NCBI GenBank assembly: GCA_010015805.1
Contig: ML978134.1
Location: 558,001-622,000 of the forward strand
DNA from: Rhizodiscina lignyota
Taxonomy: Eukaryota
DNA length: 64,000 nt
Reading direction: 5' to 3'
Position numbers and translations under genes: made by a program. Under the pieces are notes generated by a model that was not told the origin of the DNA, did no database searches, and saw nothing but the letters and a program-made list of their open reading frames with translations. Below are positions 27,502 through 44,081 of this stretch, in pieces; within the stretch, counting starts at the first letter, position 1; every line of letters starts with the position of its first letter.

Positions 27502-30092
27502 CTAGCTATACTTTTTATTCCCTTGTAGCTTAGCTGTTGTGCTGCTCGCCATGTCCTCATCAACCAGTAGCTCTGCCACCTCGTCATTAAGTGCCCTGAC
27601 ATTCACAATCCCTCTCCAGGCATGCAAACGTTCAATTCCGCCGCCTACATTCTCCAACCTTCCCGCATTGCCCTTCCGAGATGCTAGAGCTAACAGCTCT
27701 CCGACGGATTCCTAGCTGTTGGAAGTCCAGCCAGTAAGTAGCAATAGCATGAGGTGCCCAATTGCAAGTGCTGCTTGGCATAGCAAGACCGTTGCTGCGA
27801 GTTTGACAGTGATGTTGCGGGTAGACCAAGCATATCCAAACCGCTGAACTTCGAAGCTGAACGCCGTAGTCGTATCCTGATTTGCTTCATAGAAGGACAG
27901 TGGGGTGTCGTAAGGCGCATAGGAAAGGTTTCCTACGTTGAGATTATCCAAGATTCTCGCAAACGGCTGGCCTCCGTCGCCTGGATCGTGAACGACAACG
28001 CTTGCGTTTGGATTTAACAGATAATTAACCCGAGAAAGGCTGTCTGCTACATAAAGGCCGAGAGTCGTAGCAACTTGCCATGGTATATTTTGCTTTCCTT
28101 GGATTACATACAGCTCGGGAGTGTAGTGGACACCGAAGTTCTTCACCATCATAGCCAGAGGCCGAGGATCGGACACACTAGCGTTATTTATCGCCGAAGC
28201 GTAAGATGGTGGTATCACTATCTGAGTGGTTTTATTCAAGTTGCGATAGTCGGATCGATTGAGCGCATCGTAGGGATCGGGTGAATCTTGGTATACCAAG
28301 TTGTCTGTGCGTGGATCTAGCCAGAGAGAAACGGGAACCCAATGCGCGAGGATAGAACATGGAAGAAGCTGGAAATTCTCCCACTCATCCTTGAGAACGT
28401 AGACTGCCGCTGCAGAAGACGCATTTGTAAAGTTACTCACATCAATGAATTCTACAGAAACGCCGTTGGTGGAATCGTACCTAATCACAACACTATCAGC
28501 AACCAATAACGCATTACAAGGGAATATAAGGTACGAGAATCATTGTGCCGCCACCGTCAAATATTCTTGTATACAACTGGAGGATAATATTAATTTGACG
28601 GGAATACGCAGCGAAGCATCGCGTCTAGGTCTAAAAGTTCCGATATGTTTGCAGCGTAAAGCATATGTTGGGAAAAGAATAGCTACTTACCAACCAGTGT
28701 TAAGATACTGAACCGGAACAGGCCAGTGGACATCGTCGAATTGCTTGTCAACTTGCGACACAAGCTGGCGATGGGGAAACTCGATACCTCTGGAACTATT
28801 CGTTAAGTTGTACATCGCACACTCGATTTGGACCAGTGGCTTCTGCATAGCAACGGTACTGTTCACCAGCCGTGGAGTTAAGATTGGACGAGAGATATTC
28901 TTCGGCTTCAGCTCTTGTTCGCTCACCCACTCCCAGAATGATCCCACATCCCGAGCTTGTCGATTACTAACTGTTGATGCAGCCGTCCAAGTAGAGCCAC
29001 TGTTCTTTACTGGTTCCTGTGGAACAGAGGTAGCATAACGGAATACGCCGCCGTCCGCGTCAACGGAGATGTTTGGATGCATGAGCTGATTTTCAAACGC
29101 CGAAGCCCAACCAGCAAAATGGTCAAGGCCAGCAGTAACAGAATATTCGTTCGTAGGATCAATGAACCATGGATCGGGTACAGTTTTGGGCCAAATACTC
29201 CCGGCTGAGATGTTCAGAAAGCATGTTTCTGAATCTCTATGGAACGGGTCCTTCAGATCCCACCAATCAAGCTGCGGAATCATGAGAACGGCAGAGGATG
29301 GACCGACTAAAGCGGCAAGTATTACCTAGTAACTCGTCGGTCAGTTGAGAAGTCATCGCAAAGACACGTTCGTGAGATACGTACATTTACCGCTATTAAA
29401 ATACCAAGGAACGTCCATCGGTAAACCCTGAAACGGTGACGGCTGTCCTGGCTTGTCGATCGAGTGGTAGTAGCGCCGGCCCAGAATTCCCTTGAGAAGA
29501 GATAGTAAACATCTGTGAGTCGATATGGCGCTGTGACAAGGCCCAGTGGAACGCCCCCGTTCGACAGCAAGGAGACCTGGACTCTGTGCAACACAATGGT
29601 TCCAAGCGATAGAGTCATCATTAATTCGTGCGCTTTTGCGGCGTATTGCAAGGAATCCAGTACGAGATTCTGGCCGGCAGCTCCGAGATCGCTCCAATAG
29701 ACATTCTTGTAATTCAAAGCAAGGATTATGATGGTGATGAACAGAGGAGGGATGTGGACCAGGATGGACCACAGCAAATTCAAACTCTGACGTCTAGTTG
29801 TATAAATGACTTTGGGCGGTTCGCCCCGTCTGGTGTTCTTATACACACGGGTAACTGTGCGATGCAGCTCCGTCTGGCTCGCTGCTGCAGAGGCTTCTGT
29901 GAGAGGTATCTCGTCCTGTGGGGTAAAATTGATCTGTACGTGGTCATTCAATGACCTTAAATTCTTCCAAGCAATTTCAGTTGAGGCATTGCGAAAACTG
30001 ACTGTGAGCTGCGCCGACAGAAGAAGAGAGATTGAACATTTCAGAAAGATCGGAAGGTTGGGAAGGCTTTGGAACTTGATTATACATGCCAT
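27502..30092 (-). pseudogene. Fungal multi-pass membrane protein of unknown function with a premature stop (truncated allele or pseudogene)
   Basis: Three ORF segments join through GT-AG introns (near 29.3-29.4 kb and 28690-28481). Motifs LQYAAKAHELMM, LVGPSSAVLMIP and VQRFGYAW. In-frame TAG at 27714-27712, after which the frame stays open to 27502. Confidence 0.65.
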
Positions 30093-30522
30093 GATACTGA
30101 ATCTTTTCTTCAGCCTCTTCGGCGCTTACGAATCGTTGGACATAAGGCTGAAGGAAGGCTGCATCTGCTGCGTCTGCTTTCGAACTGCCCGAGTTATTTT
30201 AGGGAGACATAGGCTTGCATATTGGAAGGCTGTTAGTGCAGACTTTTACTCCCATATCGCACTATAATATGAACAAGGTAGTTCTTTCAGTTCACAAAAT
30301 AGTCAGACAAGATGCAGTTCGAGAGTGGAAGTGTATTTTGAAGGATCATTCTCACGCTCAGGGGTCAACTCGGCTGTAAGTTCAAGTCACGGGGCAGTTC
30401 GCGCTAACCAGGGACCCCGGCTGATCCCGAGATTCGCCACCTCCACATGAACTTGCCACGAGAACGTCGTCTTCCTCTCTTCCTCTCCACTAACCTTACT
30501 GCTTGGTTGGACAATCATCAGT

Positions 30523-34325: not shown

Positions 34326-35644
34326 GCAGTTGCCAAATATGCGAACGACGTTTCACTGAGGCAGCAGCGCTCTGTCCGCGTGACTAGATTCATGAAAGGA
34401 ATGCACCGGAGAAGGCCGTTTGCGAATCGGCGGTCTATATGGAGTACGGAGCTTCCCTGTGTCAACTACCACAGACACGTCACGAAGCCCAAATGACGAC
34501 CTGGAGATATTCACTGTTTTGGTCCGCAAGCGCCCGCAGTGAGGAACTTGTCTTGCTACGAAGCACTCCTCGCGCCTCTTGGCCGCTTAATTGCTGGTAC
34601 TACCAGGATCATGTAGCATATAATGGCGCAGATTAAATCACACTACAACATCATGCGGATTATTCTGTTGATCCCTGGTTCTGTTGAGGTATGTTGTGAC
34701 ATCACATGAACCTTATGAAACCGGTTGTTGTCCTACATTTCTTATAAAGACTCGAGCCGACGCTTTGGCTGCCGTGGCATATATATAATTCTCTCTCGTA
34801 TTGCTGAATGCTGCGTGAGTTCGCACCTACAGTACCTACTATGTCCTTAGAAACGCCCAACGAAGGCCATGTTAAGCAACTGATACATTCACTCTCAGCT
34901 TGCATCGAAGCAATAGCCCACGCTGTCCCGAGCCATATTCGCATCCCCTCGCGTCTCCGTTCGGCCAATCCTTTTCGACCGGACACGACCCCGATGGGCC
35001 AAGGGCATAGTGCCAACGAGCCCGATACGTATGTATGGAGCGCGATTAAGTACCACAATGATGGTAGGCGAACATGACTACGGCGTCCTACACCAGCCAT
35101 AAACACTGATCCTTCTGATCACTACAGAGAGACAAAAAATATCCCGAAAGACTGGGATCCCGCGCCTGCCGCTGAAGTTCTCACCGGATCTCGCACGTGG
35201 AGCGGAGCAATGGGCACAACACCTCCTCAAAACAAACAGCTTCAAGCACTCGAACGCGGATGGTGAGTACGGCGAGAACCTGTGGATGGGTAGTGGCAGG
35301 CAGCTTCGCGGTCCAGCGGATATTCAGAAGATGATTGCCGATGCACATAGTAGCTGGATTGAGGAGGGTCATCGACCTGGCGAGAACACACATTATTCAC
35401 AGGTACGTATCTAACGCTGGTACATCCGTGTCACAAACATGGAGGAGCTGACCGTGTTTCTGGAAGATGATCTGGCCGTACACGACAGAGCTTGGTATCG
35501 CTCATGCGTACCGCGACGGTACCGCAGTGGTTGTTGCGAGATATTCGCCACCTGGAAACATATTGGTCGTTTGTCCGCTTAAGGGGTATCACATTTCTTC
35601 GATGTAATGAGCGAACGAGGGATTGAATGTTCCGATTAACGAGT

Positions 35645-36560
35645 CTAATGGAGCGGGTGGTCGGTGAGATCGATACCCTTTGATTCAAGGAACTCGCGAC
35701 GCTCCATGAACCGGTGATTGAGTGTCCACTGAGTGACTGCATTCAAGTCTCTACACCGATACCTTCCATGCTCGCCAAAGTTGAGGTAGTCCTCTGTCGG
35801 AGAGAGGTTTACATCAGCATTACACATCATGCCCTGTCGGATCCAGTCCACACAGTGTAGGCTGTGATTGTAACCTTCAGACCCGTAGGCGAAAAACTGA
35901 TGGTTTGGGTGGTTGAGGCGCTCACGAACAACCTCCTGATATGGGTAAGCATCTTGGTTGGACTAAGTCGTTTCGCATAGGCTTACTAGACAGTGTAGCT
36001 GGTGGAATACTTCTACTTGATATACGCTGCTGCCAGGATACTTTGGAGGCGCTGCGGCAGAAGGAGGCAATCCTCTCTCAGCCGCCCATTCATCTGGGAC
36101 TATAACAACTCCGCCTCCCTCTGGAAATGGTGTTAGTCAAATAGAGGAACCACTTTTTTTACAAGCAGCTTACTAGGATGCATGCTGACACGCCAATAAA
36201 TATCATTCTCATCAGATTCCGGTACGATATCTGGGTTGGACAAGAAGGTAGTGGGAGTATTGAATTTATTTAGTTCATCATCTGAAACATTTATGAGTGT
36301 TTGATAGAACTGGTATCGAAGGGGACTTACACGAATCATTGATCAGCGATAAAGCCTGGCAAGGTGTCCAAAGGGTGAACCAAAGTATTGTAGCTATCAC
36401 GGCTAGATTGAGACACTGAACTATGAGAACCCATGTACAAGTATTTAAGCCGTTGTGATGTTGAAGTGATCGAAGCACAGGTAAATCAGAAGCGCAATTT
36501 GGATCATGCTGTTCACTCTCCTTCTGAGTGAGAGGACGATAGCTAGTCAATACTCTCCAT
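35645..36560 (-). CDS. UstYa-like / DUF3328 oxidase #1 (start codon out of frame)
   Basis: Four exons with introns 36330-36282, 36173-36121 and 35986-35936. N-terminal TM helix, then GGGVV..GLPPS...YQVEVFHQLHCL|EVVR...NHSLHCVDWIRQGMMCNAD...CRDLNAVTQW. Two HxxHC motifs. Confidence 0.85.
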
Positions 36561-36842
36561 GATGAAGAATTGGGGTCAGACAGGAAAGAGATTCTAGCTT
36601 GAGCCTACAAAGTTCTTATCTTATAAACTTTGAAACAGACCTAACGCTGATTTAACCTCACTCATCTGACTCATAACCTAGTTCACGCTTAAGTGGGACG
36701 CATCCCTGAGTAAGTTAGTCGATTTTACAAATACATACAAGGTTATTGGCAGCGCAAATCTCCATACCCACTGCATATATTAATGTAAAACCTCTGCAGC
36801 GGCTTATTCAAGCCTATTGCATCAACCATACATATAACTATT

Positions 36843-37871
36843 CTATGTTTCTAGTAAACTCCCATTATAATTGGTTACTTGGTGCTGAACTAATTGTTCT
36901 TTAACAGCATTCCAATCTCGACAATTGTGGCCTGACCCTATCCCATCGAATACTATTCTCGACGATCCATCCATGCGCATACTTTCATGGCCAAACGTGA
37001 GAGTTGTGTCACCTGAGCGAGCGTATCAGTACGGCTCCAAAGTAAATCATACGTTTTGAACTCTGCCGCGTGTCTTACCAGCACAAAGTATTCCTTGTCG
37101 GACTGTTGATGTTTGTTAGCCACGGAAGACATAATGAGCCAGATTAGTTTAGCTATCTTACTAATATCAAGACAATGAAAGACATGTTTTGGGGTACTGT
37201 ATTTTGATGTGGTACCTTTGTCATGATCAATTATCACCCTCCTGAGGGTAGCCTAAATATGCGTTATCAAACAGAAGGTTATTAAAGATATAGGGCAAGA
37301 ATTACCAAGCAATGAAGCTGATGGATAAGTGACGCTTGATATATTTCAGATCTTTCAGGGTCGTTGATTTCAGACTCGTTGGAACGGTCCCATAGCACAC
37401 TTTTTGGTAAGTTGTGCTGCCGAGGGTATGGCACACGGACGTAGCCAGCGCCAACTGAAATCAATTCAGCATCAAGTATATCAGAGCATAGGGATTGTTT
37501 TATACGTGGCAGCATATCATCCCAAGCTTTATCTCCGAGCTCACTAGTATCCCAATACTCTTCCGCCTTGACGAACTCGGTGTATATGATTGGAACTGTT
37601 GAATCTCAGCGATATACATGTTTGTAAGGTAGGAGATCTCACCAGCAGGAAAGAAATTTATGGGTGAGCCCAAGGACCTCTCCATCCCAATATGAGAAAC
37701 CTTAAATATCCACAAAACTACCAAGATTAACAGCGCTAAGAACACGAAACCAATTCTCATTGCTAAAGCCTTAGAAAAGGTCCACCGACTACTGATCCAT
37801 ATGGTGGAGTGGGATTCGTCTATCAGTTCTTCCTCATCTTGGGCTATCGCCTTGTACGTGTTTGAACCCAT
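36843..37871 (-). CDS. UstYa-like / DUF3328 oxidase #2
   Basis: Six exons with introns 37642-37596, 37505-37455, 37305-37253, 37161-37103 and 37078-37013. Reads MGSNTYKAI..., TM helix, AWDDMLP.GAGYV...IHQLHCL...KHVFHCLDIIRQGILCAGDTTL...DGIGSGHNCRDWNAV. Confidence 0.9.
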
Positions 37872-38751
37872 CGTACTATGTAGACGAGAGAAATATTGTC
37901 GATGATATCTGTCTAGCAAGAAGGAAGACTTCTTCGGAACTCCTCATAAAGAACAATTGCTCTCAATTACTAATGTGAAAACCATATCTTTCCATAAACG
38001 GCAAAATGTAAAGGACGCACTAAGCCTGCTGCTTACTGTAAATTAGCCTCCTGAGGGGTTTCAGATAAGCCTCTCGTGTAATCTTGTGTTCAAATATCAC
38101 ATAGATCGTACACTTAGCAGCGTGGCGCTTCGACGCATCCAAACGCGTTTGGAGCGTGTCGGTGGGTCGGATCTAACAGCGTCGGCTTGAAAACGAACCA
38201 AAGGCGGCGAGAGATTAGTCCATATTGAATAGATTTGCCACTGTTGCGCTTTTTAACAAATTAGAAGCTCTGATATATTAAGTACTGATAGCCTAGACGC
38301 ATCTAGATATCGCTTAGACGTAATCGAAGAGACCGGTCAGCTCCAACGCACATGGATCTGACGCAATAGTTCAATGCTTAGAGTGCGGAGCGCGGCCGCG
38401 AGCCACGCTAGACTACACTTCTTCTTGGAATATGCCTCTGTGTCAAAAAATCCTAGATCCACAAATGCTCTCAAATTCCTAAAGTGTTCTCGTATTCGTC
38501 TTATCTCACTTCGTATTCTTGTCCTCTCTAGGCGCTTCGTCTTTCCCCGGATTTTCGATGCATTTAAAGCTTCGAGCCGTGCTCAAATTCAGATGGCCAG
38601 ATTGCCTTCAATTAATGCATTTTGAATAGCTTTTAACGTTTTCAAATCTGCATTTCATAACAGCTCAAATCTGAGCATAAAAGAAGACCAATCTCTCTAC
38701 CTTTCCACCTCATCATTTCTCCTGAAGCACCAATTCTACAGCTCATTCATA

Positions 38752-38916
38752 ATGCGTTTCACTCTATTCCTGCCTACAGCATTGCTGTACTTCGCTACTA
38801 CAACCGTTGCGGCACCGGTACAACAAGAGAGAGCTGTGGTTCCTAGCCTCGATGCCCGAGCTCGCTGCTTTGTAGGCATTTGCGGAGGAAGTAGCAATTT
38901 TTCGGACCGCAAGTAA
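38752..38916 (+). CDS. Small secreted prepropeptide, candidate RiPP precursor (54 aa)
   Basis: MRFTLFLPTALLYFATTTVA-APVQQERAVVPSLDAR-ARCFVGICGGSSNFSDRK*. Signal-peptide-like N-terminus ending VA|AP, an LxxR pro-site, CATAATG start context and a TATA-like CATAAAA at about 38676. Too short for the ORF track. Confidence 0.75.
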   Translation: MRFTLFLPTALLYFATTTVAAPVQQERAVVPSLDARARCFVGICGGSSNFSDRK

Positions 38917-39001
38917 ACAATCCTAGGTCAGTATAGTATAATATTCACTCTGTATATCTGCTTGATCTACTATACGATAAGTACACCGCAGCTAAATACT
39001 A

Positions 39002-39064
39002 CGCAGCAGACGAACCAGACTCCGCAGCAGACGAAACAGACTTCACAGCAGACGTACCAGTTCT
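39002..39064 (+). repeat. Three 21-bp imperfect tandem repeats
   Basis: cgcagcagacgaaccagactc / cgcagcagacgaaacagactt / cacagcagacgtaccagttct. Confidence 0.85.
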
Positions 39065-39495
39065 TTAGGCATCGGATTGAACGGATGAATCTACACTGCA
39101 GAACACTGAACATACTTTATATAGTTTAAAGTGATCAAATGCCACAAATTCTGCACTATGACTGTATTAAGATTGGCTACTAGCTCCCACCATATATGTC
39201 GCACTGTAATTGATAGTACCGTAAATTCTCCTTCCTCTGACTACGTTTATTCTGAAGGTCTGGCCGTACGAGTATAGAACTGAAGTGAAGGCAAATTCAC
39301 AGTCTTAACTTTAGTAAGTACGTACACTTGAGGTTCTACATTATTCCTTTGCTACGCGCCCTTCAGATATGCAAAAAGCTCGTATTTGTACGCTGGAGTA
39401 ATAATGCTAAGCTGGGTCTCAAATGCTATCGCTTCCCTTCCCCAGTATTTACTAGACTCAACGCATCATTTCACTCTTTTTACAATTTTTCCCTC

Positions 39496-40158
39496 ATGGC
39501 ACCCCATCATTATAGCGAGCTGCCAGTAACAAGCACGTTTGATGGTCATGAAGAAGATGAGAAAACCCCCTGGGTGTCTCGGAAGCCTCCATCTTTTTAT
39601 CTACCAGCTGTTTCGGCCATATTAGCCATTGCTTTCGCCATCGCCATCACCCTCCTATTTTTAACAGGTCTGCCACTCAACAAATGTACCATTGAAAATG
39701 GCATGCCATCTGGAACCTCTCATACTAGAAACGAACCGCGATATCATAACTGTGGCTCGACACCTGACGAAGCCCGTGCTCGCGGGTGCCACTTCGAGGT
39801 CTTGATGGGTATCTGGCAACTCCCAGAATGCTTCGACGCCGAACTGCAAGAGGAATATCTTCACTATCGAAATTGGAAATGGTTCGAGGACGAGGCTATG
39901 ACTCGGGAGGTGCCAATGGAGGTATTGTCAAGAGGAGACCATACAATAGCCTGGGCGACGAATGAATTTCATCTGATACACTGTATGTATGTCTGGATAA
40001 AGCAGCATAAGGTGTATAAGTATGGAGGAAGCCTGGATCACGACTCTCAGAGCACTCACCACACAAGACATTGCGCGCATTATGCGTTGGAAGGGCCGGA
40101 ACCTATGACGCCTGTAAGAAATGGCTACCCAAATTGCACAAGAGTACATAGATCTTGA
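39496..40158 (+). CDS. Divergent DUF3328-like twin-HxxHC membrane-anchored oxidase #3
   Basis: Intronless. MAPHHYSEL..., TM helix, NCGSTPDEARARGCHFE...W..PECFD, FHLIHCMYVW (HxxHC 1) and HHTRHCAH (HxxHC 2). Confidence 0.75.
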   Translation: MAPHHYSELPVTSTFDGHEEDEKTPWVSRKPPSFYLPAVSAILAIAFAIAITLLFLTGLPLNKCTIENGMPSGTSHTRNEPRYHNCGSTPDEARARGCHFEVLMGIWQLPECFDAELQEEYLHYRNWKWFEDEAMTREVPMEVLSRGDHTIAWATNEFHLIHCMYVWIKQHKVYKYGGSLDHDSQSTHHTRHCAHYALEGPEPMTPVRNGYPNCTRVHRS

Positions 40159-40744
40159 AAATTGAAATATACTGTTACCTATTACACAGGAATTTGCTCA
40201 CCATGATGGCTATCCTCGTTTTTCAGCTTGTGAATGTGGGTCATAACCAACAGAAACCTCCCGTGACGAGAACGCGCCAATGCTTTCTAATGCAACAAAG
40301 CTAGTAAGGAGCTATAGGCATAGGTACTTTTGAATTAAAGACTACCCTTGTCCTTAATAGCTTTTGCGAACAGTCTCTGTCTACCATGCAATACTAACAT
40401 TCGCCTTGAGTGTTACGGAGGAGCGTCACTTTGAACAGCCTCGAAACCACCAGCCACAGCAGGCTACGAGAATACGTCTTCACTCGTAATAAATCACGTG
40501 GAATGGATCACTCAAAATCCCGGGCGAAGTAGATTTTGGTTGCCTGATGCGATTTGACGAGGTTGAAAACATGCGGTGAAAAACTCAGGCCTAGAATTGT
40601 GATTGATAGGCGCCACGTCGTCAAAGCTCAGCCTTCTGCACTGCCTTCATTTTCTCTGCCGCTCTGCAAGGCTGAACTCTACAATATTATTTCAACCGAA
40701 CGATCGCTCGCAGTGTGATACTCTCCTCGAATACGGTCCGAGTC

Positions 40745-43700
40745 ATGCGTCTTTTGCAATGCGTTAAGGCTGGCAAGTTTCAGCTGACCAGAGACTTTAT
40801 TCGTAACGATGAAATCCCGCCGTATGCGATCCTTTCTCACACTTGGACGGATGGAGAAGAGGTCACCTTTCAGGATCTAACCGAGGGCACTGGCAATGAC
40901 AAGGCTGGCTTTCAAAAGATTCGCTTTTGCGCAGAACAGGCTGAGCGCGACAATCTGCGATACTTTTGGGTTGACACTTGCTGCATCGACAAAACAAATA
41001 GTGTCGAGCTTCAAGAGGCTATAAATTCCATGTTCCGCTGTTACCAGAAAGCAGCTCGATGCTACGTCTATCTATCCGATGTCTCGACAGCGAAGCGGAA
41101 AGCAGGTAGTTTGTCGTCTGACCCGTCCGCCGAGTCTACGTGGGAATTGGCCTTGAAGGAGAGCAGATGGTTTACTCGCGGCTGGACCCTTCAAGAACTT
41201 CTTGCTCCTCTCTCTGTTGAATTCTTTTCTCGAGAGGGGAAGCGACTAGGTGATAAGAGAAGCCTGGAGCGGGAAATTAACGAGACAACGGGGATTTCTA
41301 TTTCAGCGCTTAAGGAAACTTGTTTGTCCGGGTTCAGTGTCCATGAGCGATTTAAGTGGGCAGAAAATCGAAGCACCACGCGCGATGAAGATCAGGCATA
41401 CTCGCTACTCGGCATATTTGGCATCCATATGTCGCTCATCTATGGTGAAGGAAAAGAGAGCGCGCTTAAGCGTCTTAGGGAGAAGATAGATAAACCGTCG
41501 AAAGGTACGCATCCAACCCACTACACAACGTCAGCGCTGATTAGCAACCCAGAACTCCACGACGCATTGCAGTGGCTATCGCCCGTGGACTTTGCTGCCG
41601 AGCAGTACGATATTATTAGTCGAAGACATGAACGTACCGGGCAATGGTTTCTCGACTCTACAAAATTCCAGAACTGGCTTCATGAAGGCGACAAGACGCT
41701 CTTTTGTCCGGGCATCCCAGGAGCTGGCAAGACAATAATGGCCGCTACTGCTATTGACCATATCTCGGCACTACCTGATAAGGTGGGATTGGCCCACATA
41801 TATTGCCGGTATAAAACGCAAGCCGATCAGAGCGTCTCGACCCTACTCGCCGCTCTCTTGAAGCAGCTAATACAGGGTAGACCGCAAACAGTGGCTGCGA
41901 CTACGCTCATCCAGCAGCATTTTGAACAGAGGAGACGGCCATCTCTTAACGAGTTGTTTGGAGCTCTGCAGTCTGTCTGTGCGGACTATCCGAAAGTGTA
42001 TATCGTCGTCGACGCATTGGACGAATGTGACGACAGACGTGGTGATCGGAGCACAATTGTCGATAAACTTGGTGACCTGCAGGCTGGAACAGACGTGCGA
42101 CTGTTAGTCACGTCTCGCTCGCTACCCGAGATTGACAACAAGTTTCAAGCGAGCCCTCGGCTGGAAGTCTACGCCAATAAGGAAGACGTGCGCCACTTTG
42201 TGGCGAGCCAGTTGTCACGTCTATCGAACCGCATCAAACGCGACGACGAGCTCAAGCGTGCTGTACAGAATAAGATTGTTGAAGCTGTCGATGGCATGTA
42301 CGTATTTTGGATTCTGCCTGCAGCGCGACCTTCTTGCTCACGAAACCCGTAGGTTCCTCCTCGCGCAACTCCATGTTGACTCGCTTCTTGATAAGTGGAC
42401 AAGACGCGAAGTGCTAACTATGCTGGACAAGCTATCGAAAAGATCAGCTGTCGGAGAGGCACTAGAAGAAGCCTATGGTGAGGCGATCAAACGGATCGAT
42501 GGGCAACGGTCTAGAGCTCGCTTGCTGGCGAAGCGCATTCTATCTTGGATAACGTATGCACGAAGACCGCTTACAACGACAGAGCTGTGTCACGCACTAG
42601 CTATCACACCAGGAGATAAGGCTCTGAATAACGACGACGTATATGACCCGGAAGATCTCATCTCCGTCTGTGCTGGGCTTGTCACTGTAGAGAGCAATAT
42701 CATCCGCCTTGTTCATTACACGACGCAGGAATATCTTGTCAGGGCATGTTTAGCATGGAACCAGGATGCTACGGAAGAGATAGCAGTAGCCTGTCTAACA
42801 TACTTGTCCTTTGACACATTCCAAAGCGGCAGCTGCACCAGCGACGAAAGCTTCCAATACAGGCTCACCGAGAATCCATTCTTCGACTACTCGGCGTCCT
42901 ACTGGAGTGAGCACGTACGACCGGTAGAGGACTTCCCTATTGTTTCCGATTTGGCACTAGTCTTCCTTTGCAATGAAGCATTAGTTGATTCTCACATTCA
43001 AGCTGCGTCGGTGTCACCGTTACGTTACAGACCCGAGAGTTTCAGTGAGGATTTACCAAGCCGAACAACTGGGATGCACCTTACGTCGAGTTATGGGCTA
43101 CTCTGTTTGACTGAGAGGCTCTTGAAAGGGGAGCAGGGACAGAGTGACGTCGAAATCGATGCAAAGGACTCGTACGGCTGCACGGCGCTGTGGAAGGCTG
43201 CATCGAACGGGCACGAGGCGATCGTTAAGCTGCTGCTAGACACTGGTAAGGTCGACGTCAATATAAAGGAGAGCTGGAGAGGCGACCGCACACCGCTATT
43301 AGAGGCTGTATCGAACGGGCACGAGGCGATTGTCAGGCTGCCGCTAGACACAGGCAAGGTCTATGTCAATACAAAGGACTCGAGTGGCCGGACGGCGCTG
43401 TGGGAGGCTGCATCGAACGGGCACGAGGAGATCGTCAGGCTGCTGCTAGACACAGGCAAGGTCGTTGTCGATATAAAGGACTGCTATAGCCAGACGCCGC
43501 TATGGAAGGCTGCATCGAACGGGCACGAGGCGATCGTCAGGATACTACTAGATACGGGCAAGGCCGACGTTAATATAAAGATGGACTGGGACGGCCGGAC
43601 GCCGCTATAGGAGGCTGCATCAGAGGGACATGAGGCGGTCGTTAGGCTACTACTAGACATAGACAAGGTCGACGTCGATGTAAAAAACCGGTTTGACCAG

Positions 43701-44081
43701 ACACCGCTATGGGTGGCTGCATCGAACGGGCACGAGGCGATCGTCAGGATACTACTAGATACGGGCAAGGCCGACGTTAATATAAAGATGGACTGGGACG
43801 GCCGGACGCCGCTATGGGAGGCTGCATCAGAGGGACACGAAGCAGTCGTTAAGCTACTACTAGACACAGGTAAGGTCGACGTCAATATAAAGGCCTACAG
43901 CTTGACGCCGTTGTCGGTAGCTGTATCGAATGGGCACGAGGCGATCGTAAGACTACTGCTGGATACGGGTAAAGTCGACGTCGATACGAAGGACCTGTAC
44001 GGCCAGACGCCGCTACGGGTGGCTACATCGAGGAGGTACGAGGCGATTGTTAAGCTGCTCGAAAATCGCGCCAGTGTATAG
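40745..44081 (+). CDS. NLR-type HET-NACHT-ankyrin protein with a premature stop in the ankyrin array
   Basis: HET domain (YAILSHTW, WVDTCCIDK, SRWFTRGWTLQELLAP); NACHT Walker A GIPGAGKT and Walker B IVVDALDEC; introns 41505-41552 and 42298-42352; about 8 highly similar ankyrin repeats; TAG at 43608-43610. Confidence 0.9.
43160..44060 (+). repeat. Highly conserved ankyrin-coding tandem repeats (about 102-108 bp units)
   Basis: Repeated ggctgcatcgaacgggcacgaggcgatcgt...ctagacacaggcaaggtcgac. Two near-identical blocks start at 43508 and 43715 (offset 207 bp). Confidence 0.9.

Follow-up and report, generated by a model that had tools for sequence, protein, structure and literature searches.

The closest described systems are the dikaritins or ust-RiPS (ustiloxins, phomopsins, asperipin-2a and victorin), fungal ribosomal peptides for which a signal-bearing precursor gene is found beside one or several DUF3328 genes with two HxxHC motifs. 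They are expected to be processed along the secretory pathway, a Kex2-type site precedes the core, and the cluster is small and devoid of a nonribosomal peptide synthetase (NRPS). Dikaritin cores measure 4-6 residues. Precursors typically hold several of them (PMC12048977), DUF3328 genes peak at the position adjoining Kex2-processed repeat precursors, and Tyr is present in 65.6% of the DUF3328-linked repeats (PMC7329392). A repeat-type precursor occurs within 15 genes of only 31.8% of 9399 DUF3328 genes (PMC7329392), and for lichen DUF3328 clusters without repeats it was suggested in 2025 that the precursor might be encoded elsewhere or contain 'a single core peptide' (PMC12048977). Here, we analyzed a 64,000-nucleotide stretch of Rhizodiscina lignyota DNA (GCA_010015805.1, contig ML978134.1, positions 558,001 to 622,000 of the forward strand), referred to as the window. 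At 38752-38916 of its plus strand is a 54-codon open reading frame (ORF) surrounded by three genes of UstYa/DUF3328 type, named A, B and C. We tentatively propose that its product, P0001, is a single-core, Tyr-free pre-pro-peptide with a Cys pair that could be tailored in the secretory lumen by the flanking copper oxidases A-C. If it is their substrate, P0001, with one core and no Tyr in it, would be related to the dikaritin-type fungal ribosomal peptides, those tailored by DUF3328 enzymes.

A preliminary description of this DNA, made from the letters alone, had reported the ORF; we obtained the same 54-residue translation, followed by TAA. Short frames are abundant in the window, which contains 260 ATG-initiated ORFs of 40-100 amino acids (aa), and 77 of at least 50 aa were counted between 28 and 50 kb, so that a 54-codon ORF is by itself weak evidence of a gene. 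Stronger evidence came from an exhaustive phmmer scan of 1,835,955,588 representative proteins, in which P0001 retrieved two matches at E ≤ 1e-3, P0002 and P0003. P0002 is a 54-aa protein aligned over its entire length (1-54 to 1-54) with 65% identity (66.3 bits, E 1e-13). The alignment contains 35 identical columns out of 54 and no indels, and start, stop, length and frame are common to both sequences. For the 19 replacements, no fewer than 24 nonsynonymous substitutions are needed in the 162 nt (15% or more). Identical residues amount to 12/20 in the signal region (1-20), 9/16 in the pro-region (21-36), 0/2 in the dipeptide 37-38 and 14/16 from Cys39 to Lys54, and the core block CFVGIC-x-GSSNF-x-DRK is better conserved than the rest of the protein (14/16 versus 21/38, one-sided Fisher p 0.022). 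Both Cys (39, 44) and both Phe (40, 50), the residues singled out in the preliminary description, are invariant. The GC content of the ORF is 0.52, compared with 0.44 in the 751 nt before it and 0.41 in the 579 nt after it. Since start, stop, length and frame are kept despite at least 24 changes, the core is constrained, the signal-peptidase and LxxR sites are retained (see below) and GC is higher in the ORF than in its flanks, 38752-38916 very probably corresponds to a real coding gene.

P0002 is a single sequence without any Pfam domain, found on one 3371-nt contig assembled from a public run. P0003 was dismissed as a relative: its three short matched stretches belong to a 630-aa internally repetitive sequence, and we take the score (E 6.3e-4) to be a repeat artefact. 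A word-indexed homologue search of 5.8 billion clusters with P0001 gave no match, and a profile built from P0001 and P0002 retrieved P0002 as its sole match. A metagenome scan with the peptide profile yielded 305 pattern matches, 0 of them confirmed, the ESM Atlas returned no look-alike of P0001 (best score 0.75), and a search of PDB sequences gave 0 hits at E ≤ 10.

The three-part layout proposed earlier for the precursor (signal, pro-region and C-terminal peptide) agrees with the sequence, and both putative cleavage sites are found at matching positions in P0002. The signal-peptidase position reads T-V-A/A-P in P0001 and A-V-A/A-P in P0002 (the slash marks the cut), and the LxxR motif reads L-D-A-R and L-E-A-R, respectively, with L33, A35 and R36 invariant. 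The signal region includes Arg2, a 21-residue run free of charged, His, Asn and Gln residues, and T-V-A ahead of the proposed cut. We screened short ORFs with a crude heuristic of our own, different from SignalP, based on three criteria: a basic amino acid close to the N-terminus, an extended hydrophobic stretch free of charge, and small side chains at -3 and -1. Four of the 260 ORFs of 40-100 aa pass it, P0001 included; at a stricter threshold three pass, and P0001 is not one of them. Residues 1-28 also weakly resemble the N-terminal part of yeast alpha-factor precursors (Pfam family MF_alpha_N; E 0.15, 12.4 bits for a cut-off of 22). LxxR is indeed an expanded Kex2 pro-domain motif as described in PMC8528282, which is how the preliminary description had presented it. 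Its proposal of an 18-mer released after L-D-A-R stands as regards the LxxR site and less well as regards the N-terminus of the peptide: the AR dipeptide at 37-38 is replaced by EP in P0002, so the conserved unit begins at Cys39 rather than at Ala37. The C-terminal part contains C39 and C44 (C-x4-C), F40 and F50 and no Tyr, as first noticed, Y13 belonging to the signal region; the core (39-54) comprises two Phe, two Cys, three Ser and zero Tyr. Neither a second copy of the peptide or its core motif nor a repeat-type precursor was found in the window, P0001 being the sole match to the core motif in the six frames.

The coordinates of the peptide gene, its parts and the flanking oxidase genes are listed in Table 1. 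The possible core promoter lies 22-75 nt 5' of the ATG, and the base at -3 is A; we take the ATAAAAG, CCAAT and pyrimidine-rich elements to be promoter signals from general knowledge of filamentous fungi. The 880-nt region that separates the ATG codons of gene A and P0001 contains a GC-rich palindrome (38382-38409) with 19-nt overlapping arms around GCGGCCGCG, which could be the binding site of a regulator or a product of chance. On the other side, 82 nt 3' of the peptide stop, a 21-nt unit (a period of seven codons) occurs three times with 85% matches (38998-39060). On the minus strand it falls within a 48-codon stop-to-stop ORF (38970-39116) as three Cys-rich heptads, and it is open in plus frames too; it is probably 3'-UTR (untranslated region) or intergenic microsatellite-like DNA.

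Table 1. Coordinates, in the window, of the peptide gene P0001, its predicted parts and the flanking UstYa/DUF3328-type genes.
Feature	Coordinates	Strand	Details
Single-exon gene, 54-aa pre-pro-peptide (P0001)	38752..38916	+	Stop TAA included; translation, full-length homologue
Signal-peptide-like region, residues 1-20	38752..38811	+	Sequence reading and own heuristic
Pro-region, residues 21-36	38812..38859	+	Ends in L-D-A-R (LxxR); putative cleavage
Variable dipeptide, residues 37-38	38860..38865	+	AR here, EP in homologue P0002
Conserved core block, residues 39-54	38866..38913	+	CFVGIC-G-GSSNF-S-DRK; C-x4-C pair, terminal Arg-Lys
Possible core promoter	38677..38730	+	TATA-like ATAAAAG 38677-38683, CCAAT 38688-38692, pyrimidine-rich tract to ~38730
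Gene A, UstYa/DUF3328-type, 250 aa, six exons	36843..37871	-	Own model
Gene A exons	37871-37643, 37595-37506, 37454-37306, 37252-37162, 37102-37079, 37012-36843	-	
Gene B, UstYa/DUF3328-type, four exons	35645..36604	-	Own model
Gene B exons	36604-36331, 36281-36174, 36120-35987, 35935-35645	-	
Gene C, divergent UstYa-like protein, 220 aa, single exon	39496..40158	+	Short C-terminus

The preliminary description had implied DUF3328 neighbours, and UstYa-type genes do flank the ORF, recognized by Pfam for B and by BLASTP and motifs for A and C. The ATG of gene A is located 880 nt upstream of that of the peptide gene on the opposite strand, so the two genes would have a common divergent promoter region; gene B adjoins A, and gene C starts 579 nt 3' of the peptide stop. 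Together, the four genes fill a 4.5-kb islet with a GC content of 0.42-0.45, for a window mean of 0.52. All words sampled from 35000-41000, including those in introns and spacers, occur in one sequencing run, which is presumably DNA and possibly the source of the window, and no RNA run was listed with it. Repeat-induced point mutation (RIP) was rejected as the cause of this low GC: the two RIP indices at 36-40 kb are 0.84-0.96 and 1.18-1.32, and the second is well above its threshold of roughly 1.03. We scanned 34 ORF translations (15 + 19) across the 64 kb with Pfam, chosen by us with a minimum length of about 95 aa close to the locus and of 130 aa elsewhere, a sampling that may miss small or heavily spliced genes. 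Among these 34 there was no NRPS, polyketide synthase (PKS), tyrosinase, methyltransferase, peptidase or kexin domain. Because of the close packing, the common islet and the lack of any other substrate gene among the ORFs scanned in the 64 kb, P0001 appears as the likely substrate of A-C. A search for common promoter motifs and repeats over 34400-40800 returned short two-copy matches, taken as chance, and the 21-nt tandem repeat only.

From their sequences, genes A and B are assigned to DUF3328, and gene C is classified as a DUF3328-like outlier below the Pfam threshold. Each of the three proteins has one strongly hydrophobic 19-residue N-terminal window and an HxxHC(x)23-25HxxHC signature, followed by two Cys in A, two in B and one in C. 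Gene A, modeled with five GT..AG introns of 47-66 nt, encodes a protein whose hydrophobic helix spans 40-58 and whose HQLHC (151) and HVFHC (179) motifs are separated by 23 residues. Scanned exon by exon against Pfam UstYa (PF11807), it reaches 17.1 and 15.1 bits, under the cut-off of 25, and it matches gene B by BLASTP with E 3.4e-15. Gene B passes that cut-off with its last exon (40.1 bits) and its third exon (30.1 bits), and shows a hydrophobic window at 59-77 with HQLHC and HSLHC separated by 24 residues. In gene C the hydrophobic window is at 38-56, and HLIHC at 159 and HTRHC at 189 are separated by 25 residues. It matches gene B by BLASTP with E 0.002 over both motifs, and it differs from A and B by the lack of their Cys-bearing C-terminal part. 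In the ESM Atlas it lies closest to clusters of unnamed Ascomycota proteins, 213-239 aa long (0.95-0.96), and UstYa comes first among the named families (0.85, 173/256 features in common). A word-based homologue search with gene C gave 170 candidates, none at E ≤ 1e-3, and a metagenome scan 55 pattern matches, 0 confirmed; PDB sequence searches with gene C and with the last exon of gene B returned 0 hits each at E ≤ 10. The AlphaFold2 model of gene C, computed from the single sequence, has a mean pLDDT of 41.7, too low for comparing folds, and only the helix 35-56 is confident (pLDDT 70-92). The predicted complex of two copies of gene C (62-220) with the peptide (21-54), whose chains were folded without alignments, scored 0.03 for a mark of 0.34, which counts neither for nor against an interaction.

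The copper enzyme CctR offers a model for the activity of such proteins. This DUF3328 member is described as having one transmembrane helix as well as a C-terminal domain located in the lumen of the Golgi, endosomes or vacuole, as forming a disulfide-linked dimer that binds two coppers via HxxHC(x)nHxxHC, and as hydroxylating a C(sp3)-H bond with O2 and electrons required (PMC12435403). The same source cites a DUF3328 halogenase and a cyclase with requirements like those of CctR, and reports that DUF3328 enzymes, anchored in the membrane, facing the lumen and bearing a binuclear copper centre, hydroxylate, halogenate or cyclise peptides. A-C resemble CctR in their single N-terminal membrane helix and their HxxHC(x)nHxxHC signature (PMC12435403), and by analogy their C-terminal domains would be lumenal. 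By contrast, the substrate of CctR is a cyclic peptide of non-ribosomal origin (PMC12435403), and no NRPS was found at the P0001 locus.

We infer secretion, each cleavage, any modification and the link between enzymes and substrate for P0001 along the following lines. The signal peptide (1-20) would direct the precursor into the endoplasmic reticulum (ER) and be cut after T-V-A, as suggested by the sequence. Residues 21-54 would then pass through the ER/Golgi lumen, where they could meet the catalytic domains of A-C, a lumenal site having been shown for CctR. There, the 16-residue conserved block may be oxidatively tailored. As the core lacks Tyr, candidate reactions are C-H functionalisation, namely hydroxylation or halogenation of aliphatic or benzylic positions (Val41, Ile43, Phe40, Phe50), or a side-chain cross-link in which a Cys thiol or a Ser hydroxyl replaces the usual Tyr phenol. 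Such tailoring might come in addition to, or in place of, a Cys39-Cys44 disulfide, the plain disulfide being the default. A Kex2-type protease would cleave behind L-D-A-R, trimming could remove the terminal Arg-Lys as well as the variable dipeptide, and the secreted end product would be a peptide of roughly 14-18 residues. The six-residue Cys ring would have the ring size of oxytocin-type peptides, which is a resemblance only.

The preliminary description had gone further and envisaged a new class of RiPPs (peptides made by the ribosome and modified after translation) or of peptide effectors, which we retain as a possibility. On the most far-reaching reading, P0001 would found a class of DUF3328-tailored peptides with a single core and no Tyr, in which binuclear-copper HxxHC enzymes modify a 16-residue core by a Cys/Ser cross-link or by Phe/Val/Ile C-H functionalisation; we consider this unlikely. 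In the searchable literature, we did not find such Cys/Ser or Phe/Val/Ile chemistry described for fungal RiPPs. Likewise, no single-core or Cys-based DUF3328 peptide was found in titles and abstract openings, which is no proof of absence as most subscription journals fall outside this coverage.

The claim that dikaritin precursors usually carry several cores, mostly with Tyr, was borne out by PMC7329392 and PMC12048977, and it is on these points that the P0001 locus departs from them. P0001 shares two features with a dikaritin-type precursor, the signal peptide (by our heuristic) and the adjacent DUF3328 genes, and lacks two others, the KR/RR-flanked repeats and the Tyr of the core. Instead of many repeats it has one core, whose conserved block of 16 residues bears a Cys pair and two Phe, and neither a tyrosinase nor a methyltransferase gene was found nearby. 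Because repeats and core Tyr are missing, we do not file P0001 as a dikaritin precursor but only as a protein that possibly works like one. The epichloecyclin system (gigA, the DUF3328 gene gigC and kexB) is likewise a small cluster in which a DUF3328 gene accompanies the gene of a secreted ribosomal peptide (PMC10540207). It differs by the multi-repeat GigA and by having its own kexin gene; P0001 has one core, and the islet ORFs scanned gave no protease gene. In the K2PP secreted effectors, the signal peptide is followed by a short N-terminal pro-region ending in LxxR (PMC8528282), an arrangement that is kept in P0002. Their defining feature is a pro-region that lies within the N-terminal half and terminates in KR, RR or LxxR, which in P0001 is provided by L33-D-A-R36, with predicted cleavage. 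K2PP examples such as SnTox3, ToxA and the SIX effectors are folded effector proteins (PMC8528282), whereas P0001 leaves only 18 residues after the proposed cut. Finally, acalitide (AcaA/AcaB) is a single-core fungal RiPP with Cys-based bridges, described with two CxxxC pairs forming two disulfides, a head-to-tail lactam made by a dedicated peptidase and no DUF3328 (PMC10840396). The P0001 locus has one C-x4-C pair, three HxxHC genes and no peptidase among the islet ORFs scanned, AcaA having been compared by description only.

Several observations weigh against a role of A-C in the maturation of P0001. First, the peptide lacks the usual marks of dikaritins: no KR or RR site occurs in its 54 residues, no tandem repeat was found inside the ORF, which offers a single core only, and residues 39-54 contain no Tyr. 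Second, the cut at L-D-A-R is plausible but not ideal, as P3 is Asp, reported as unfavourable for Kex2, and P2 is Ala, which is absent from the five alternative P2 residues listed in PMC8528282. Third, an ordinary disulfide is the simplest explanation for a pair of Cys in a secreted peptide. Fourth, the islet ORFs that were scanned gave no tyrosinase, methyltransferase, peptidase, transporter or regulator. Fifth, gene B may be broken: no in-frame ATG precedes its membrane helix, and the first in-frame Met is residue 125 of the open frame. Its nearest ATG (36560-36558, minus strand) is out of frame and meets a stop five codons on (36545-36543); the missing start could result from a frameshift, an assembly error, an unusual start or a missed 5' exon. 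Sixth, gene C reaches 14.2 bits against Pfam UstYa (E 0.039), under the cut-off of 25. Lastly, with P0002 as the one homologue, the association of the peptide with HxxHC genes rests on one locus, and this ORF had been picked in the preliminary description owing to its neighbours, which is a selection bias.

The explanation that competes best with tailoring by A-C, although we find it doubtful, is that P0001 is a secreted pro-peptide matured by the general secretory machinery alone, that is by signal peptidase, disulfide formation in the ER, a Kex2-type cut and carboxypeptidase trimming. The product would hold the six-residue Cys39-Cys44 ring and have a signal, antimicrobial or effector-like role, and the UstYa-type genes would serve a substrate encoded elsewhere. 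The conservation that identifies a secretory peptide fits this explanation equally, and a core without Tyr lacks the usual partner of DUF3328 cross-links. Acalitide is a published precedent for a disulfide-only single-core fungal RiPP made without DUF3328 (PMC10840396), and the DUF3328 enzymes are known to tailor non-ribosomal peptides too (PMC12435403). Orphan UstYa genes are moreover common: for 68.2% of the 9399 DUF3328 genes, no repeat-type precursor occurs within a distance of 15 genes (PMC7329392). Set against this frequency is their number per genome: the 9399 DUF3328 genes and 1461 strains of PMC7329392 work out at about six per strain, and three of them packed around a peptide ORF would be hard to obtain by chance. 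Here, three HxxHC genes stand within 3.2 kb on both sides of the peptide gene, with the 880-nt divergent promoter region and the common AT-richer islet, and the 34 ORFs scanned over the 64 kb included no other substrate gene. In addition, conservation extends 10 residues beyond the Cys ring (GSSNF-x-DRK), which a simple disulfide loop leaves unexplained.

It is quite improbable that the ORF is a non-functional frame, arisen by chance or decaying between UstYa genes, and that P0002 reflects residual DNA similarity in a related fungus. The abundance of short ORFs (260 of 40-100 aa) is compatible with this idea, as are the empty search of 5.8 billion clusters, the single relative without Pfam domain, the best Atlas score of 0.75 and the possible damage to the neighbouring gene B. 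A decaying frame would however not be expected to keep its start, stop, length and frame at 15% or more nonsynonymous base divergence, nor its changes to avoid the C-terminal block (14/16 identical versus 21/38) while the signal-like features and LxxR are kept; the GC content of the ORF exceeds that of its flanks, and the islet has no RIP signature. Least credible of all is that the ORF is the first exon of a longer gene, its TAA lying inside an intron that starts at GTAAAC and leads into the 21-nt repeat region: GTAAAC does overlap the last Lys codon and the stop, and the seven-codon repeat downstream is open in several frames, but P0002 terminates at exactly the same point, position 5 of GTAAAC is not the G usual in fungal splice donors, and the downstream frames have neither a recognisable domain nor KR-flanked repeats.

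We thus describe a conserved small secretory-peptide gene embedded among UstYa-type genes, a candidate single-core variant of the DUF3328-tailored fungal peptides. Current genome mining for DUF3328 peptides seeks a signal peptide and Kex2-flanked repeats, and the P0001 locus provides a concrete and compact (~4.5 kb) four-gene test case for the single-core idea, small enough for a heterologous host. If the peptide is modified, mining rules should cover short non-repeat ORFs, usually skipped by gene callers, the substrate range of this newly defined copper-enzyme family would be wider than Tyr-based ethers, and a new peptide scaffold would be gained. A Tyr-free single-core class, if true, would account for part of the 'orphan' pool of DUF3328 genes without a nearby repeat-type precursor. 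If P0001 is a disulfide peptide only, it would still be a conserved, previously unnamed secreted peptide.

Outside the islet, the window contains housekeeping-type genes, including a GPN-type GTPase, a mitochondrial carrier, permeases, WD40 and LIM proteins, GDE1 and PrpF/PrpD. Three consecutive open frames of 275, 212 and 267 aa at 27712-30125 (minus strand), with no Pfam match at E ≤ 0.01, are probably one spliced gene of a family unassigned by Pfam. At the edge of the islet, beside gene B, an ORF (35103-35414, plus strand) encodes a CAP domain (cysteine-rich secretory protein/PR-1-like, E 6.7e-8). Directly after gene C, a gene with HET/NACHT-type NTPase, winged-helix and ankyrin-repeat regions (NLR-like) extends over 40745-44081 of the plus strand, and probably has an intron of 55 nt (42298-42352). 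An in-frame TAG (43608-43610) interrupts its ankyrin array where sister repeats carry Trp, and the region from 43 to 44 kb has RIP-like indices (TpA/ApT 1.31, (CpA+TpG)/(ApC+GpT) 0.80).

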